DNA from: a phage | DNA length: 51,269 nucleotides | Sequence record: PZ445518.1 | Direction: 5' to 3' (one strand) | Part shown: positions 15,898 through 48,690 of the stretch, one piece after another | How positions within the stretch are numbered: the first letter of the stretch is position 1 | Layout of the letters: the number at the start of each line of letters is the position of its first letter | The notes under the pieces: model-generated | What the model saw: the letters and a program-made list of their open reading frames with translations, nothing else | Databases searched by the model: none | What the model was told of the DNA's origin: nothing | Translations under genes and position numbers: made by a program

Positions 15898-18800
15898 ATG
15901 GCTAAATATATGATAAGCGGCAGTAAGGGCGGAAGCAAAAAGCCATACGTGCCAAAAGAGATGGAAGATAACCTGATCTCGATAAACAAGATTAAAGTTT
16001 TGCTGGCTGTATCTGATGGCGAGTGCGATCCAGATTTCACGTTGCGCGATCTTTATCTTGATGATGTTCCGGTTATTGCCAGCGATGGCACTGTTAACTA
16101 CGAGGGAGTTACGGCTGAATATCGACCAGGTACGCAGACGCAAGATTACATCCAGGGTTTTACTGACACATCAAGTGAGGTGACAGTTGCAAGAGATATT
16201 ACCGGAGACAATCCTTATGTTATTTCTGTTACAAATAAAAATCTATCTGCGGTAAGAATAAAGATCCTGATGCCAGTAGGCATTAAAACAGAGGATAACG
16301 GCGATCTTGTTGGCGTAAGGGTTGAGTATGCCGTAGATATGGCTGTTGATGGCGGTTCTTATAGCGAGGTTATGAGAGATGTAATTGACGGCAAGACAAG
16401 ATCAGGATACGACCGCAGCAGAAGGATTGATCTTCCTAAGTTTGATGAGCGCGTTTTAATCCGAGTAAAGCGACTGACTCCAGACAGCACATCTTCAAAG
16501 GTGACTGATAAAATCAAGCTGCAAAGTTACGCTGAGGTTGTTGATGCAAAATTCCGCTATCCTCTGACTGGACTTGTATTCGTAGAATTTGACAGCGAAT
16601 TGTTTCCTACGCAAATCCCTAACATTTCTATAAAAAAGAAATGGAAGATTATTAATGTGCCAAGCAACTATGATCCAATATCAAGAGAATATCACGGGTC
16701 ATGGGATGGGACTTTTAAAAAAGCGTGGTCAAATAATCCTGCTTGGGTTCTTTATGATCTGGTGACAAATCAGCGTTATGGACTTGATCAGCGAGAGTTA
16801 GGAATACAGATCGACAAGTGGAGCTTATACGAAGCGGGCGTTTACTGCGATCAGAAAGTTCCAGACGGTAAAGGCGGCACTGAGCCTCGCTACCTATGCG
16901 ATGTGGTGATTCAGAATCAAGTTGAGGCTTATCAGCTAATCCGTGACATTTGCTCAATCTTTCGCGGAATGAGTTTTTGGAATGGTGAGAGCTTATCAAT
17001 CGTGATTGATAAGCCGCGCGATCCATCATACGTGTTTACTAATGAAAACGTCATCAACGGTGATTTTCAGTACACAAACGCAAGCGAAAAAAGCATGTAC
17101 ACGCAGTGTAACGTGACGTTTGACGACGAACAAAACATGTATCAGCAGGACGTAGAGGGGGTTTTTGATACTGAGGCTGCATTACGATTTGGATACAATC
17201 CAACAAGCATTACAGCGATCGGTTGTACACGCAGGAGCGAAGCGAATCGTCGCGGTCGGTGGGTTTTGAAAACAAACCTTAGAAGCACTACTGTAAACTT
17301 TGCTACCGGACTAGAGGGGATGATTCCATCAATAGGTGATGTGATTGCTATCGCTGATAATTTTCAGAGCAGCAACCTAACGTTAAACCTATCGGGCCGA
17401 GTGATGGAAGTTTCAGGATTGCAGGTTTTCGTTCCGTTTAAGGTTGATGCTCGTCCTGGTGATTTTATTATCATCAACAAGCCGGACGGAAAGCCAGTTA
17501 AGCGCACGATCTCAAAGGTTAGCGCAGACGGAAAAACCATTGAGTTAAATATTGGATTTGGTTTTGATGTTAAGCCTGATACTGTTTTTGCGATTGACCG
17601 TACTGACCTTGCGTTGCAGCAATACGTTGTGACAACTATCAGCAAGGGTGATGACGAAAACGAGTTTACCTATTCAATCACTGCTGTAGAGTACGATCCG
17701 AACAAATACGACGAGATTGATTATGGAGTAAACATTGATGACAGACCGACTTCAATTGTTCAGCCTGACGTGATGGCAGCGCCTGAGAACGTTAAGATCT
17801 CATCTTATTCTCGCGTCGTGCAGGGTGTTAGCGTTGAGACTATGGTTGTTTCATGGGATAAGGTTCCTTACGCATCGCTTTATGAAATGCAGTGGCGAAA
17901 AGGTGATGGTAACTGGCTGAATACGCCGCAGACCGCTAACAAAGAGATAGAGGTAGAAGGGATTTACTCTGGCAACTACCAAGTAAGGGTGAGATCCGTT
18001 TCTGCAAGCGGTAACGCTTCCCCGTGGTCAAAGATTGCAACCGCCACTCTGACAGGTAAAGTTGGAGAGCCAGGAGCGCCGATTAATCTTACGGCTTCTG
18101 ATAATGAAGTTTTTGGCATTCGTGTCAAATGGGGTATGCCGGAAGGATCAGGCGATACGGCTTACATTGAGCTTCACCAATCGCCAGACGGAACGGTTGA
18201 AAACTCAAGTCTGCTTACGCTGATTCCATATCCTCAATATGAGTATTGGCATAGCACGTTACCAGCGGGGCAAGTTGTATGGTATAGAATCCGCAGCGTT
18301 GACAGAATAGGCAACGTTTCAAGCTGGACTGACTTTGTTCGCGGCATGGCGTCAGATGACGTTGAATCTGTTTTGGGCGACATTCTGGACAAGATTTTTG
18401 ATACAGAAGCTGGTCAAGAAATCAAAGAGAACGCCATAGACAGTGCCAATAAAATCAAAGACCAGGCGCAATCAATCATACAGAACGCGTTGGCAAATGA
18501 TGCAGATGTGAAGTGGACGCGAGTGCAAAACGGAAAGCGCAAGGCTGAATATGGTCATGCTCTTGAGCTTATCGCCAATGAAACAGAAGCGCGCGTAACT
18601 CAAATCGAAGAATTAAGGGCATCAATTGATGGCGAGATAACATCAAGCATCAAGACAGTGCAGGAGGCAATTGCCACTGAATCAGAGACGCGAGCGACTC
18701 AAATTCAGCAGCTTGATTCTAAATTCACAAAAGAAATCGACGGCGTGCGCAAGGATACTTCTGCAAGCATTAGCGATGTAAGGCAGACAATCACTAACGA

Positions 18801-19504: not shown

Positions 19505-20117
19505 AATCATAGTGTGATGCATTTATAACCAAAACAGATGAAGCGGTGTAAATACCAACAGGTCCAGGAGTTTGTGCAACCTGCCTAGAAAAAGAGTAGA
19601 TCCCGTTACCATACGCGGCAGCTTGAGACTCAAAAATCATGAATCCACCTAAAGCCGGATTAGGAACAGAGTTTAATGCTGTCAGTGATGGCATTATGGC
19701 GCAAGGATAGCCCATGTTAACATCAAATGCGATCCCGCTTACGCCTACTTGCTTTGCATCTAGCGGCCTCATTTTTCCATGATAAACCATTTCACCATGA
19801 GCATTATAAAACGCTATGCCGTGACTACCTGGGGGAGTCACCATATTACTAAAAGCATAAACAATAACCTCACCCTGATTATCAGATCTATCAAGTCTTA
19901 TTGCGTGCCTTCCACCATTGTTAAATTGCGTGAATGATATGTATGATTTAGCGGTCAATCTAACAAAGAAAAAACATACCCTATCAACAGGAATTGACGA
20001 AGTAAAAACGGTTCCGGTATTAGCAGATATTACGGCCCGATCAATTAGATTAACTGGAGTGAAATCTGGACTTAACCATAACGATCCGTCTGATTTTTTT
20101 ATACTCATCCCGTACAT
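19503..20117 (-). CDS. hypothetical protein (third gene of Cor-like cassette)
   Basis: ATG 2 nt after upstream stop; ends at bidirectional terminator. Confidence 0.45.
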   Translation of the reverse strand: MYGMSIKKSDGSLWLSPDFTPVNLIDRAVISANTGTVFTSSIPVDRVCFFFVRLTAKSYISFTQFNNGGRHAIRLDRSDNQGEVIVYAFSNMVTPPGSHGIAFYNAHGEMVYHGKMRPLDAKQVGVSGIAFDVNMGYPCAIMPSLTALNSVPNPALGGFMIFESQAAAYGNGIYSFSRQVAQTPGPVGIYTASSVLVINASHYD

Positions 20118-30316: not shown

Positions 30317-30735
30317 TGGCTATAACTGATAAAGGAGATTATCTTGAGTTTTACGAAAGAGATCCAACCGACACGAGAAAGGAAGTTAATCACCAGATAG
30401 ATAGCTTTCAGTGGTTGACTTATGCTCATCCTTATTTGCTAGCTTGGCATACGGTAAACGAGAATGAGAAGTCGAAAGTAACGGCGATGATTGATCAGCA
30501 GTCCGGCTTGGTTAAGGGGGTAAGCGATTTCATCATCCTGATTGGTTCAAACGGAAAATACCCCTTTGCAGCGATTGAGATCAAACGAGTGAATAAATCA
30601 GGCAAGGGGAAAGCATCACCAGTCAGCGATGAACAAAAGGCTTTTTTGCGTCGCGTTCGCAGCTTAGGAGGATTCGCTGCGGTCGCCTACGGATTTAATC
30701 AGTTTAAGTTAGCTATTGAATACATGCTTAAATAG
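30316..30735 (+). CDS. VRR-NUC domain nuclease
   Basis: 139 aa with D-x(n)-E-x-K type block (DFIILIG...AIEIK); coupled to helicase. Confidence 0.6.
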   Translation: MAITDKGDYLEFYERDPTDTRKEVNHQIDSFQWLTYAHPYLLAWHTVNENEKSKVTAMIDQQSGLVKGVSDFIILIGSNGKYPFAAIEIKRVNKSGKGKASPVSDEQKAFLRRVRSLGGFAAVAYGFNQFKLAIEYMLK

Positions 30736-42037: not shown

Positions 42038-42502
42038 ATGAGCGAGCAATCATTAACTGACACGCTGCGCCGTGCAGCTATTATGCTGGCTAATGGCGAG
42101 GAAGAGGCGATCAAGATTCCTGACGCGTATTTGCAGGTCCACATGTTCGGCAAGAAGTCGGCAAGCAATCCGGCGGCCTACATTCGCCAGATCATGAGTC
42201 GAGTTCCAGAAGTCGCCGAGCGGGGGCGCGTATCCGTTACCCGTGGAGTTTACGGGCCGGAAGATGAAAACTTCGGTAGCACTTTCTACGAGGTGCGCAT
42301 TGTTGAAGGACGTCGCAAGGTTTACAACAAAGAGGCACTGGAAAGGGCAGTACGCCAGGCTAAGCGCAAGGTTGCAGAGGCGATCATTGATATGTCACCA
42401 AACCTAGCAAACTATGCGCCGGAAGAGTATGAAACATTATCAAAGGCCGTCGCTGACTTTCACGCGATGATCAAAAAAACTTTCCTGGAGGATGAGCAAT
42501 GA
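42038..42502 (+). CDS. hypothetical protein (first rightward early gene)
   Basis: AGGAGG RBS; downstream of TTGACA-N17-GATAAT promoter. Confidence 0.5.
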   Translation: MSEQSLTDTLRRAAIMLANGEEEAIKIPDAYLQVHMFGKKSASNPAAYIRQIMSRVPEVAERGRVSVTRGVYGPEDENFGSTFYEVRIVEGRRKVYNKEALERAVRQAKRKVAEAIIDMSPNLANYAPEEYETLSKAVADFHAMIKKTFLEDEQ

Positions 42503-42771
42503 AAAAGGCGTTAATCGGTGTTTTGGTGGCAATGGCATTCCTGACCGGATGTAAAGAAGATGGCGCGCATGTTGGCAATGTGCAGATGGCTAACCCTGGC
42601 GATGACTACAACGTAAGGGAGCTATTCACCGCTGACGGATGCACTGTTTACCGATTCTATGACGATCGCACTGTTTACTTCACCAACTGCAAGGGAACTA
42701 CTAGCTGGGAAGTGTCGAAAAGCAATGGCAAAGGCACGAAGACAGAACATATGACCGTCGAGACAAAATAG
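42499..42771 (+). CDS. lipoprotein (second putative exclusion-type lipoprotein)
   Basis: Signal peptide with lipobox LTGC (MKKALIGVLVAMAFLTGC); stop TAG inside conserved element. Confidence 0.6.
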   Translation: MKKALIGVLVAMAFLTGCKEDGAHVGNVQMANPGDDYNVRELFTADGCTVYRFYDDRTVYFTNCKGTTSWEVSKSNGKGTKTEHMTVETK

Positions 42772-42811
42772 CACTTTTTGTTAAAACTCAAAAACGATAA
42801 CCAGGCATAAT
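42766..42811 (+). promoter_or_regulatory. conserved-element promoter cassette (-10 CATAAT) driving structured leader
   Basis: AAATAGCACTTTTTGTTAAAAC (contains stop TAG of lipoprotein gene), 19 nt, CATAAT. Confidence 0.55.
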
Positions 42812-43211: not shown

Positions 43212-44336
43212 ATGTTAAAACTTGCTGACATTAAATTCCCGATCACCTTCGAATCTCGCGGCATTGGTCATTACATTTTTACTGATGAAAAAACATGCCA
43301 TAAGGTTAATATGAATAGCGACAAACTAAGCCCATCAACAATGGAGATTGAACACTTTATTGATGCGCACAATACGCAGTACAACGCACTTAAAGACTAT
43401 GGCTATGCAATGCCAGGCTACACATGTTTGCACTACAAGCCATATAAAGGCCAGGTGTTGCCAGTAAAAGAGAACAAGCAATTCCTGCTGGATAGCGAGG
43501 AGATTGTATACCCGATCACCTTTGAAACGGCAGGAAATAGCGTTGTGACTTTCACATCTCGCGACAACGGCACATATGGAAACGGCTTGAGAACAAGTTA
43601 TAATGTTGATTACTTCGTCGCCTGTCATAACATGGCTAATCCTAACAACGATAAGAACAAGGTGTACTACGTGCGCGATATTGAAAGGCAGTGGCCTAAG
43701 AAAGACTCCCAGGCAGAGATTCCGATGGTTCATATGAAAACCTGCGACTACAAAAAGCTGTGGTGCTTAAGTCTGGACAATATCAAGTATCCGATCACGT
43801 TCCGCACGACTGGTAAGTCAACGATTCGCTACACATCGCGCGAAAATGGCGTTTATAGCGATGGTACGAAATCAGGGTTGAAAGTTGATTTCTTTGTCAA
43901 CGGTCACAATAGATACAATCCGCACAACGAAGAGGATAAAGTGTACTACGTGGAAGACATTACAAAACACTTATTTGGAGAAACTCCATTCGGCGGCGGT
44001 AAGACGTCAATTCAAAAAATCATTGGCGATGAGATCCACAAAGCGGCTGCCGAAATGAAAGCTCCTGGAGGCTGGCGTATTGACAAGAGCGCATTTGCAA
44101 ATCAAGAAATCGTAACGCAGGGCGCAATTGAAGATATGCCAGTTGCAGCCACTCTAAAAGGAGTCCGGCTTGATGACGGCACCTGGTATGAAGTAACGGC
44201 TACACCAAAGACGATCGAGATTCATGATGACGTTGTTATCCTTCTGCTTCACTACGGCGGCTATAAAAACCGGACGATTGCAGGTGAGATCAGCATTAAG
44301 CGCGGAACGATGATTAAGTGGAAGGTGAAGATTTGA
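43212..44336 (+). CDS. protein with three tandem ~95-aa repeats (unknown function)
   Basis: Repeat units begin IKFPITFESRG / IVYPITFETAG / IKYPITFRTTG and each ends with a ..DKVYYV(R/E)DI-type block. Confidence 0.6.
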   Translation: MLKLADIKFPITFESRGIGHYIFTDEKTCHKVNMNSDKLSPSTMEIEHFIDAHNTQYNALKDYGYAMPGYTCLHYKPYKGQVLPVKENKQFLLDSEEIVYPITFETAGNSVVTFTSRDNGTYGNGLRTSYNVDYFVACHNMANPNNDKNKVYYVRDIERQWPKKDSQAEIPMVHMKTCDYKKLWCLSLDNIKYPITFRTTGKSTIRYTSRENGVYSDGTKSGLKVDFFVNGHNRYNPHNEEDKVYYVEDITKHLFGETPFGGGKTSIQKIIGDEIHKAAAEMKAPGGWRIDKSAFANQEIVTQGAIEDMPVAATLKGVRLDDGTWYEVTATPKTIEIHDDVVILLLHYGGYKNRTIAGEISIKRGTMIKWKVKI

Positions 44337-44412
44337 GTTTGCTCACTGCGGCGCACGTCGCCGCATGGATCGGATTGTTTTCCTACCTGTTTAGCTTTTA
44401 TTGAGGTGAGAG

Positions 44413-44565
44413 ATGGCTACCTGGATTTTGCTGATTCTTATGATTGATGGCGGCGTTGACCATATCGAAATGAATAGCCAGCAATCTTGCATTGAGGCAC
44501 GAGAGCAGATCAAGAACAACAACAGTTTTTATGCGTACACTCACACGCTATGTATTAAGAAATAG
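44413..44565 (+). CDS. small hydrophobic Cys-containing protein (50 aa)
   Basis: RBS GAGGTGAGAG; stop TAG inside conserved element; paralog of 45854..46015; below ORF-track cutoff. Confidence 0.35.
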   Translation: MATWILLILMIDGGVDHIEMNSQQSCIEAREQIKNNNSFYAYTHTLCIKK

Positions 44566-44604
44566 CACTTTTTGTTAAAACTCAAATGTGGGGCCAGGTA
44601 TAAT
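44560..44604 (+). promoter_or_regulatory. conserved-element promoter cassette (-10 TATAAT)
   Basis: AAATAGCACTTTTTGTTAAAAC, 18 nt, TATAAT flanked by GGCC..GGCC. Confidence 0.6.
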
Positions 44605-44634
44605 GGCCTCACTTTCAACGAAGGAGATAAAACG

Positions 44635-44856
44635 ATGTACATTAAAAATAAGATGAAATGCGTTTCCGTTAACTATGCTTGCTCTGGCATGTTCAAGCCT
44701 GGCGAAATCTATACGGCGCAAAAACTGAAAACATCAACCGGATCTTTTTACGTGAGCAATAGTAAGGGGTATCGCATGTTCCTGAACGGCGGCGAAGGCA
44801 CTAAGGTTATGGCACACGCTATGGTAATGGCTGAATTTGAGGAAGTGAAACAATGA
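44635..44856 (+). CDS. hypothetical protein (tandem paralog of next gene)
   Basis: ATG after AAGGAGA; shares PGE-IY / YxxFLNGxxGT / AEFEEV blocks with 44853..45098. Confidence 0.5.
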   Translation: MYIKNKMKCVSVNYACSGMFKPGEIYTAQKLKTSTGSFYVSNSKGYRMFLNGGEGTKVMAHAMVMAEFEEVKQ

Positions 44857-45098
44857 TCATTGAAAACAATTTTCTTTGCGTTAAGAGCAATAGACCATTC
44901 TTCACACCTGGCAAGGTGTACCAGGGCAAGAAGGACACAAGAGATGGTCACTCTTATCATGTTCACTGCAACAACGGATACAAGTTTTACCTTAACGGCG
45001 AGAATGGAACTGAGATTGTTGCGTTTGAAAACGTAGTTGCCGAGTTCGAGCAGATTACAGACGCGGAATTTGAGGAAGTGAAAGATGAAAACAAATAA
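44853..45098 (+). CDS. hypothetical protein (tandem paralog)
   Basis: ATG overlaps upstream stop (ATGA); paralogous blocks as above. Confidence 0.5.
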   Translation: MIIENNFLCVKSNRPFFTPGKVYQGKKDTRDGHSYHVHCNNGYKFYLNGENGTEIVAFENVVAEFEQITDAEFEEVKDENK

Positions 45099-45306
45099 GC
45101 GCGTCAAGCACAGGTTTACTGATAACCACGGCGACGCGATTGATGTATACAAGTTCGGCGATCGCGTGTTTATTGATGGCACGTTTGAAGGTGGTCGTAG
45201 GCCGGATTTTAGGTCGATACTTACCGTTGACCAAGTGCGCAAGCTGGCAGATAAGTTAAATGATCTGGCAGATGAAATAGAATACAAGCAAATCCATTTT
45301 AATTGA
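45085..45306 (+). CDS. hypothetical protein
   Basis: 73-aa ORF overlapping upstream gene by 14 nt. Confidence 0.45.
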   Translation: MKTNKRVKHRFTDNHGDAIDVYKFGDRVFIDGTFEGGRRPDFRSILTVDQVRKLADKLNDLADEIEYKQIHFN

Positions 45307-45317
45307 TAGGTTTTATA

Positions 45318-45857
45318 ATGAAAAAATACACTTTCGAACTATGGGGCAAGAAGTACGAATTAATCACCAGCAAGCCGATTGTTATCGTTGACCTGGACGG
45401 CACACTATCGGACGGATCGCATCGTTTGCATTTGCTGCCAACTGAAAGCTTGCACCTTACGGAATCGTGGCGCGAGTTTAACAGGGCCGCAGCAGGAGAT
45501 TCACCGATTAAAAGCACGATCGCGATTGTTAACGGTTTGTGGGTGTCGGGATTTGCCATCGTCATCTTGACCGGACGCAGCGACGAGGTGCGCTATGAAA
45601 CCTGCAAATGGTTGAATGAGAGCGGCGTGAAGTTTGACGAAATCATCATGCGCCGCCAGGAGGACAACCGAAAGGATACGGTTATTAAAGAAGAAGCCTT
45701 GCGCGCTATTGGCCTGGACAATATTGTTTGCGCCTTTGACGATTCGCCGAACGTTGTTAAGCACTTCCGCAGCCTGGGAATCACAACCTATCAGGTCACG
45801 GAATACGACAAGCCACACGCTCACCTGCAATCTCACGGCGTGGAGTGTTTAAAATGA
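45318..45857 (+). CDS. HAD-superfamily phosphatase / nucleotidase
   Basis: HAD motif I DLDGT (IVIVDLDGTLSD), motif II ILTGRS, downstream K and DD residues. Confidence 0.65.
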   Translation: MKKYTFELWGKKYELITSKPIVIVDLDGTLSDGSHRLHLLPTESLHLTESWREFNRAAAGDSPIKSTIAIVNGLWVSGFAIVILTGRSDEVRYETCKWLNESGVKFDEIIMRRQEDNRKDTVIKEEALRAIGLDNIVCAFDDSPNVVKHFRSLGITTYQVTEYDKPHAHLQSHGVECLK

Positions 45858-46015
45858 CTTGGTTGCTTTTAATCTTTGTCACAAGTTACAACTCCGCAGC
45901 TATTGAGTCGCAGGAGTTCCACGGCGAATCAAGATGCCAGGAAGCGCGAAAGCAAGTTATTCTCCACATGTCAGATAGTGGGAAGGATGTAACAGCGTTA
46001 TGCGTTCGTAAATAG
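45854..46015 (+). CDS. small hydrophobic Cys-containing protein (53 aa)
   Basis: ATG overlaps upstream stop (ATGA); stop TAG inside conserved element; paralog of 44413..44565. Confidence 0.35.
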   Translation: MTWLLLIFVTSYNSAAIESQEFHGESRCQEARKQVILHMSDSGKDVTALCVRK

Positions 46016-46056
46016 CACTTTTTGCAAAAAACAGATCATCGGGCTTGCTGTATAGT
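46010..46056 (+). promoter_or_regulatory. conserved-element promoter cassette (-10 TATAGT in hairpin loop)
   Basis: AAATAGCACTTTTTGCAAAAAAC, stem GGGCTT..AAGCCC enclosing TATAGT, leader CATCAACAACAAACGAGGA. Confidence 0.5.
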
Positions 46057-46087
46057 AAGCCCATCAACAACAAACGAGGATTAAATC

Positions 46088-46351
46088 ATGGCTAACAAGA
46101 TCGAGTTTTTTAAAGCTGTAGACATTATCGACGGCGCGCCTAGCTTCTTTGCTATCCATTCTATTGACGGCAAGGATATTGGGTACAACGTTATCCGTCG
46201 AGATGGAATCTCAAAAATTAGTGACCTGGTAGGCCATATTGTGTCAAACGGGAAATGCGCATGGCCCGATTCGCCACGAGAGCCACGCCGCCGCGACATG
46301 GTAGAGCCTGTTCTGCTTTACACTCTGGTAGTAGAGGGAGAAAATAAATGA
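46088..46351 (+). CDS. hypothetical protein
   Basis: ATG after GAGGA, downstream of promoter cassette. Confidence 0.5.
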   Translation: MANKIEFFKAVDIIDGAPSFFAIHSIDGKDIGYNVIRRDGISKISDLVGHIVSNGKCAWPDSPREPRRRDMVEPVLLYTLVVEGENK

Positions 46352-46533
46352 TTTGGTTACTTGCTTTTTTGGTTGCTTTTCTCTACATTTCAGGCTTATT
46401 TACGTTCCGCGCTTTTGTGAAATATTCTGGCACGACAGACAAGGACGATAAAATCGTTCTCGCTTTCTGGTTTGTTTGGGTGTGGTTAGCAATTTACGAG
46501 ATCATTAGAGACAAACAGAAATTTGAGTGGTGA
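46348..46533 (+). CDS. small membrane protein (two predicted TM helices)
   Basis: Two hydrophobic stretches; start overlaps upstream stop. Confidence 0.45.
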   Translation: MIWLLAFLVAFLYISGLFTFRAFVKYSGTTDKDDKIVLAFWFVWVWLAIYEIIRDKQKFEW

Positions 46534-48647: not shown

Positions 48648-48690
48648 TAGCACTTTTTGTTAAAACTTCCGCAAGGGCATTTGGTAAAGT
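48645..48690 (+). promoter_or_regulatory. conserved-element promoter cassette (-10 TAAAGT in hairpin loop)
   Basis: TAATAGCACTTTTTGTTAAAAC, stem AAGGGCA..TGCCCTT enclosing TAAAGT. Confidence 0.45.

Follow-up and report, generated by a model that had tools for sequence, protein, structure and literature searches.

Background

Phage TLS carries a 21-nucleotide (nt) direct repeat, which was noted in the same description for T1, Rtp and Rogue1 (PMC11447400). The function of this repeat is unsettled: it may be an UP-like or -35-like part of a promoter, an enhancer site or a 'stoperator' (PMC11447400). A second element is a small gene, represented in T1 by AZS32502.1 (MK213796 3389-3538) and in the T4-like phage RB49 by a tandem pair, RB49p232 and RB49p231, between nrdA and nrdB. 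Both elements occur in the DNA analysed here, a stretch of 51,269 nt from a phage (PZ445518.1; the whole stretch is called the window), in which two small paralogous genes, gp34 and gp39, each stop at a copy of the repeat.

Positions 44000-46400 of the window are a 100% match (megablast) to Shigella phage JK16 (MK962751 / NC_049814), a T1-like phage of the Drexlerviridae (Tempevirinae, Warwickvirus). The same search returned 131 related records, nearly all of them T1-like coliphages. In the small-gene region the window coordinate equals the JK16 record coordinate + 26184.

gp34 and gp39 belong to a widespread family of small phage proteins

gp34 (JK16_00034; 44413..44565, +) encodes 50 amino acids (MATWILLILMIDGG...CIKK) and gp39 (JK16_00039; 45854..46015, +) encodes 53 (MTWLLLIFVTS...CVRK), with a longer, GTG-started form of gp39 possible from 45845. 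Both open reading frames (ORFs) are present with the sequences and coordinates reported in a first-pass annotation made from the letters of the window. That annotation also described them as missed by the ORF track, which does not hold for the public record: GenBank and RefSeq (MK962751/NC_049814) both annotate gp34 at 18229-18381 and gp39 at 19670-19831 as coding sequences for hypothetical proteins. They were left off the track probably through a length cut-off alone, the default minimum of the ORF lister being 60 amino acids; both appear when the minimum is 30. gp34 and gp39 are already known genes, annotated as hypothetical proteins and belonging to a catalogued family.

This family is phrog_5579, whose function is not assigned. 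Both proteins match its 52-position profile from end to end, gp34 at E 5.7e-22 (residues 1-50 against positions 1-52) and gp39 at E 3.5e-9 (residues 1-53 against positions 2-52), and are plain members, with no differences from it. Aligned with each other over their full length they share 16/52 identities (about 31-32%; BLASTP E 3e-6), so that the paralogy proposed for them is borne out. gp39 also matches the related phrog_3766 (E 8.4e-7). No Pfam or NCBIfam model, solved structure or assigned function was found for phrog_5579, and there is no third paralog in any frame of the window, where a family hidden Markov model finds gp34 and gp39 and a next-best hit at E 0.79. The paralogy is ancient: the single copies of T1 (48% identity), Pseudomonas phage Motto (40%) and Henu7 (40%) resemble gp34 more closely than gp39 does, and gp39 represents a divergent lineage. 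The Motto and Henu7 genes are 30-40% identical to gp34 and gp39 alike. The Henu7 member (MISAWILVSISYYGGLQPIEF...CVKK; NC_054894, L006 2001-2153), which overlaps the stop codon of pnk as ATGA, is unannotated in RefSeq.

The T1 protein resembles the two JK16 copies in length, in its M-x-x-W-hydrophobic start, in the C..A motif of the helix and in its C-V-K-K/R end. Its gene, like gp34, follows a gp33-like gene and stops on the TAG of the repeat. T1 has a single copy, overlapping the upstream gene as TAATG, whereas JK16 has two at different sites and, unlike T1, carries an additional mini-ORF of 23 codons ahead of gp34. The RB49 pair shares the length, start, motif and end of the family, and the pair is conserved in > 50 Krischvirus genomes.

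A word-indexed search for homologs returned close relatives only, and a narrow alignment of the locus in IMG/VR gave three near-identical loci. An exhaustive profile search of 1.84 billion representative proteins gave 82 clusters (50% identity level, E ≤ 1e-3), nearly all of them 48-68 residues long. Conservation in related genomes, which the first-pass annotation had pointed to as one way of judging the two ORFs, is found both in relatives and across 82 divergent clusters. In an alignment of 81 sequences C47 is invariant, and W4, L6, E19, F20, C26 and A29 are conserved in at least 90%. The two motifs picked out earlier, C-x-EAR-x-Q and the C-terminal C-(I/V)-(K/R)-K, are present in both JK16 paralogs; family-wide, only C..A and C-V-x-K are kept from these motifs.

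gp39 differs from its pSf-1 counterpart by 12 synonymous changes and one non-synonymous change (ratio of non-synonymous to synonymous rates, dN/dS or ω, 0.017) in surroundings that are 87.5% identical in DNA. In comparison with phage egaa ω is 0.12. gp39 is thus under strong purifying selection. For gp34 there is no dN/dS signal among close relatives (0-2 synonymous changes, DNA almost identical), and diverged orthologs are found in T1, Motto and Henu7. As far as sequence can tell, gp34 and gp39 are genuine protein-coding genes.

Natural absences and deletions

gp34 is absent from egaa, and gp39 from NorthRox and three IMG/VR relatives. In a group of metagenomic relatives (L020-L022) a natural deletion of ~1.8 kb joins codon 31 of gp34 (...CIEARE) to the end of gp40 (PRRRDMVEPVLLYTLVVE) via a 9-nt microhomology (CACGAGAGC); the junction lies at L020 10001-10150 and corresponds to window positions 44496 / 46283. 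The deletion variant, found on 19 metagenomic contigs from several samples, has lost gp35-gp39 (pnk included) and the C-terminus of gp34, and contains no intact copy and no other family member within ±10 kb. With some relatives lacking one or the other paralog, and the deletion variant lacking any intact copy, it is clear that gp34 and gp39 are dispensable, accessory genes.

Two rearrangements of the same loci were also seen. In a second chimera (P0008) the same left junction is fused to another gene. In NorthRox, pnk (L015 1821-2537) has 238 codons, with an unrelated in-frame C-terminal extension of 58 residues replacing gp39; the stop codon of this extended gene is a TAA that immediately precedes the TAG of the repeat.

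Predicted fold and cellular location

AlphaFold2, run with the family alignment as input, gave models of gp34 (mean predicted local distance difference test score, pLDDT, 90.2; β1 4-10, β2 14-20, α 23-36, β3 43-49) and of gp39 (mean pLDDT 95.0; β1 2-10, β2 15-23, α 25-39, β3 45-52). For homologs, the models in BFVD superpose with TM values of 0.84-0.86. Both proteins are predicted to fold as a small soluble β-β-α-β mini-domain and, as modelled by AlphaFold2 in both paralogs, the hydrophobic N-terminal segment is strand β1. The cysteines are Cys26 and Cys47 in gp34 and Cys28 and Cys50 in gp39. The conserved residues seem to occupy core or capping positions, no catalytic constellation is shared across the family, and other positions vary freely.

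The hydrophobic N-terminus had earlier suggested small membrane or secreted effectors. This is not supported by the fold models, the hydropathy statistics or the conservation of the segment, and gp34 and gp39 are probably not membrane or secreted proteins. Across 81 members the uninterrupted hydrophobic run is 5-10 residues long (median 8), and the maximum of the 19-residue Kyte-Doolittle average (KD19) has a median of 1.22 (gp34 1.22, gp39 1.05), with 7/81 members reaching the usual 1.6. A bilayer-spanning stretch (18-20 residues, KD19 ≥ 1.6) is absent from gp34 and gp39, the longest run being 10 residues. No lysine or arginine precedes the run in 74/81 members, gp34 and gp39 included. The best-conserved stretch of the family is the T-W-I-L-I-I block, in which W4 and L6 fall within the run. 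A Sec-type signal peptide would have 7-15 hydrophobic residues followed by a cleavage site of the AXA type. A motif of the SAA/AAA type follows the run in gp39 (S-A-A) and in some relatives, and is lacking in gp34, T1, Motto and Henu7. Nor does either protein have a lipobox L-x-x-C: the cysteines follow QQS and ESR, 15-18 residues past the run.

That the N-terminus is nevertheless a signal peptide or membrane anchor, and the proteins exported or membrane-inserted effectors with a periplasmic C26-C47 disulfide, is unlikely. Such effectors would account for a hydrophobic N-terminus in every member and for the SAA, AAA and ASA motifs after the run in gp39 and several relatives, which resemble signal-peptidase sites. 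Two near-invariant cysteines would be natural in an oxidising compartment, and the neighbours include a lipoprotein (42499-42771) and a protein with two transmembrane (TM) segments (46348-46533). However, the run is short and of low hydropathy, the n-region has no positive charge in most members, gp34, T1, Motto and Henu7 have no AXA-like site (in T1 a proline follows the candidate site), and the segment is modelled as a core strand with pLDDT > 90 in both paralogs. Nor is any other part of the family better conserved, which is the opposite of the signal-peptide pattern.

A proposed role as accessory early factors

We slightly favour, as the best explanation overall, that gp34 and gp39 are accessory, cytoplasmic early factors which bind protein stoichiometrically and are anciently diverged members of a widespread family of proteins of ~50-60 residues. 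We infer the cytoplasmic location, the binding mode, the dimerisation and the role alike. Each gene would be the last cistron of an early module transcribed by the host RNA polymerase and would be translated from its own Shine-Dalgarno sequence, with gp39 additionally coupled to pnk via the ATGA overlap. The product would be a compact soluble β-β-α-β domain that has the hydrophobic N-terminus as a core strand, one conserved cysteine in the first helical turn and the other on β3. Early in infection it would most likely bind another host or phage protein stoichiometrically, in an accessory role of the host-takeover or counter-defence type. It may form a homo- or heterodimer via the uncovered hydrophobic face of the sheet. 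Both genes would be non-essential and partly redundant.

Small phage inhibitors with a three-stranded sheet and one helix (T7 Gp2, T4 Dmd, AcrIIC3 and AcrIC8) offer an analogy in mode of action only, not membership. Similarity to the T7 Gp2/T4 Dmd type is not significant (4lk0_M, E 0.62, TMq 0.52; 5hy3_B, E 0.78, TMq 0.45), and these inhibitors (Foldseek E 0.6-0.8) have no sequence similarity to gp34 or gp39 and share no known motifs or targets with them. Searches with the two proteins gave no Pfam, NCBIfam or PDB-sequence match (no PDB sequence hit at E < 0.16). Foldseek against the PDB gave nothing below E 0.046, the best match being to Top7, a designed protein, in its N-terminal half, and the structural search of BFVD matched uncharacterised phage proteins only. 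No literature on gp34 or gp39 was found via locus tags, the PHROG id or T1-like transcriptomics. In metagenomic contexts family members always lie in long arrays of small genes of early or accessory type without assigned function, and one copy adjoins an Acb2/Tad1-like gene.

Several points weigh against accessory cytoplasmic binders. A near-invariant pair of cysteines is unusual in such a protein and would suit a metal or redox site, or else a peptide that is exported and disulfide-bonded. AlphaFold2 confidence for a protein of 50 residues is not proof of solubility, and an all-hydrophobic strand could also mediate association with a membrane. In addition, the commonest metagenomic variant of gp34 (P0002, 267 contigs) carries C26F.

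More tentatively, phrog_5579 as a whole might be a widespread class of β-β-α-β mini-proteins with a cysteine pair, present in virulent enterobacterial phages (T1-like, RB49-like and many metagenomic ones) and acting as stoichiometric inhibitors of host factors or defences. In genomes with two copies (gp34 and gp39; RB49p231 and RB49p232) these might form a heterodimer or have two targets.

pnk (gp38; 45318..45857, +) encodes a polynucleotide 3'-phosphatase of the HAD type and is translationally coupled to gp39, whose ATG overlaps the pnk stop codon as ATGA (45854-45857). The small protein could thus be a dedicated partner or regulatory subunit of this enzyme in RNA or nucleotide repair, a minor rival that we regard as distinctly improbable. 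The same ATGA overlap between pnk and the small gene is present in pSf-1 and egaa, and even in Motto and Henu7, where the small genes share no more than 30-40% identity with gp34 and gp39; a single gene (nrdB) separates the RB49 tandem pair from a pnk homolog of 44% identity. On the other hand, the T1 copy and gp34 are coupled to a gp33-like gene instead, with pnk 0.75-1.4 kb away, and in NorthRox and three IMG/VR relatives pnk is retained although gp39 is missing. A pnk homolog occurs in 0/5 independent metagenomic contexts (flanks of 0.8-5 kb per side). A universal linkage of the family to pnk was rejected on the same 0/5 contexts and the coupling of T1 and gp34 to another gene.

It is very unlikely that the cysteine pair forms a redox-active site, or a metal or Fe-S site bridging a dimer (2 x 2 Cys), with a role in redox or nucleotide metabolism linked, for example, to ribonucleotide reductase. 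Points in favour are the invariant C47, the conservation of C26 at 90% or more, the position of the RB49 copies between nrdA and nrdB, and that of the JK16 copies among genes for nucleotide metabolism (pnk and a deoxynucleoside monophosphate kinase). Against this, the family has neither a CxxC motif nor a conserved third or fourth ligand, His17 is present only in a subset of members, and the abundant gp34 variant P0002 has C26F. No similarity to thioredoxin, glutaredoxin or NrdH folds was found, and within the regions examined neither JK16 nor T1 encodes a ribonucleotide reductase.

The idea that the ORFs are spurious or non-functional, persisting merely between conserved regulatory elements, could draw on the dispensability of both genes in some natural relatives and on near-identical gp34 orthologs without dN/dS signal, but is effectively refuted by the conservation data: ω of 0.017-0.12 for gp39, 82 divergent clusters that keep length, start and motif, a confidently predicted fold, and conserved Shine-Dalgarno sequences and coupling signals.

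The pair is of minor importance at present and has a modest practical value: the family has a broad range, its members are very small and have confident models, and its presence varies among coliphages (JK16, BASEL and T1 relatives) that otherwise are near-identical and easy to engineer. It is therefore a cheap target for assigning function to one of the many small early phage ORFs.

The direct repeat at the stop codons

The pattern TAGCACTTTTTG(Y)(W)AAAA, with TT or CA as the variable pair, occurs in 17 copies in the window, compared with 0.53 expected. It is the 21-nt repeat known from T1-like phages (aaATAGCACnnnTTGnTAAAA). Copies include those at 30733, 31804, 38200 (-), 40117 (-), 44563, 46013 and 48648. 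The copies at 44563 and 46013 match the consensus, are oriented with transcription and have the next ATG at +72 and +75, respectively, compared with ~76 nt in the definition for TLS. The 'TTT' subtype accounts for every JK16 copy except that at 1567.

As the first-pass annotation had it, both small genes stop at the TAG of this conserved, promoter-associated element. The stop codon of gp34 is the TAG of TAGCACTTTTTGTTAAAA (44563..44580, +), downstream of which lie a hairpin (44588-44612), TATAAT (44599-44604) and the ATG of gp35 (44635). The stop codon of gp39 is the TAG of TAGCACTTTTTGCAAAAA (46013..46030, +), which is followed by TATAGT (46051-46056) inside a hairpin (46041-46062) and by the ATG of gp40 (46088). 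A further copy upstream (42769..42786, +) marks the start of the module gp32-gp33-mini-ORF-gp34. gp34 and gp39 each come last in a module that the repeat closes.

At 9/17 copies an ORF of ≥ 50 amino acids ends on the TAG, and at three more an ORF ends at a TAA 3-4 nt upstream. Because 9/17 copies overlap an upstream stop codon in this way, the stop on TAG is a matter of genome compaction, and the idea that it is a special property of the small genes was rejected. The C-terminal ...K-K-stop of the family simply fits the 5' 'aaATAG' of the repeat; family members in phages that lack the repeat (for example, RB49) keep the same C-terminus.

At ~12 copies a -10-like hexamer lies at an offset of 36-38 nt from the T of TAG, and in 11 of these the next start codon is 69-80 nt downstream. 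TTGTTA and the -10 hexamer are ~21-22 nt apart, too far for a standard sigma-70 -35 element. Also seen at ~12 copies was a GC-rich, copy-specific hairpin just before or around the -10 hexamer (z -3 to -5 relative to shuffles for most). The hairpin shows a compensatory change between T1 (AAGGCCA...TGGCCTT) and the JK16 copy at 48648 (AAGGGCA...TGCCCTT). Hairpins around the -10 hexamer, as seen in JK16, are not mentioned in the description of TLS (PMC11447400).

gp33 and an unannotated mini-ORF upstream of gp34

gp33 (43212..44336, +) encodes a protein of 374 amino acids with internal repeats, whose C-terminal domain is shared with the T1 protein encoded directly before the T1 small gene. The repeats are tandem units of ~90 amino acids (motif P-I-T-F-E/R-x-x-G ... 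V-Y-Y-V), followed by the C-terminal domain, which is also found in a T1 protein of 161 amino acids. As relatives include versions of 297 amino acids, the number of repeats varies.

Between gp33 and gp34 is a spacer of 76 nt with an inverted repeat (TGCGGCG-cacgt-CGCCGCA, 44347-44365). The spacer is filled by an unannotated mini-ORF of 23 codons (44333..44404, +; LSLLTAAHVAAWIGLFSYLFSFY), hydrophobic and TM-like, which contains the inverted repeat and whose TTG start overlaps the TGA stop of gp33 (TTGA). It is kept as an ORF in ~37 relatives at 82-96% amino-acid identity and is 52% identical in egaa and JakobBernoulli. In the five relatives read, substitutions keep its hydrophobicity. The egaa mini-ORF (MSIYTLMHIAGWIGLFLYILMHY; L014 about 1369-1440) has an ATGA overlap and no inverted repeat, though egaa is without gp34.

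The first-pass annotation had described each small gene as following a larger one through start/stop coupling or a hairpin. For gp39 the coupling stands, and an inverted repeat does precede gp34, but it is not a conserved RNA element; that candidate was rejected since the hairpin lies inside the conserved 23-codon ORF and is absent from egaa. With the mini-ORF conserved and the inverted repeat not, the hairpin is a by-product of the codons for A-A-H-V-A-A. All three features are thus ordinary: genome compaction explains the stop in the repeat, operon coupling the start/stop overlap, and an overlooked mini-ORF the 'hairpin'. The pair itself is ordinary in the same sense: annotated hypothetical genes of a catalogued family.

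Other neighbouring genes

For a predicted lipoprotein of 90 amino acids (42499-42771, +), with a signal peptide and the lipobox LTGC, the stop codon is again the TAG of a repeat copy. The protein matches Pfam DUF4884 at 31.9 bits (cut-off 30) and could be a putative protein of the superinfection-exclusion type.

gp35 (44635-44856, +) and gp36 (44853-45098, +) are adjacent paralogs with a common C-terminus, ...AEFEEVK, and match phrog_9122 (E 3e-4 and 2.6e-10, respectively). The copy number of the gp35/gp36 unit varies among relatives, which accounts for the classes of 84-93% coverage in megablast.

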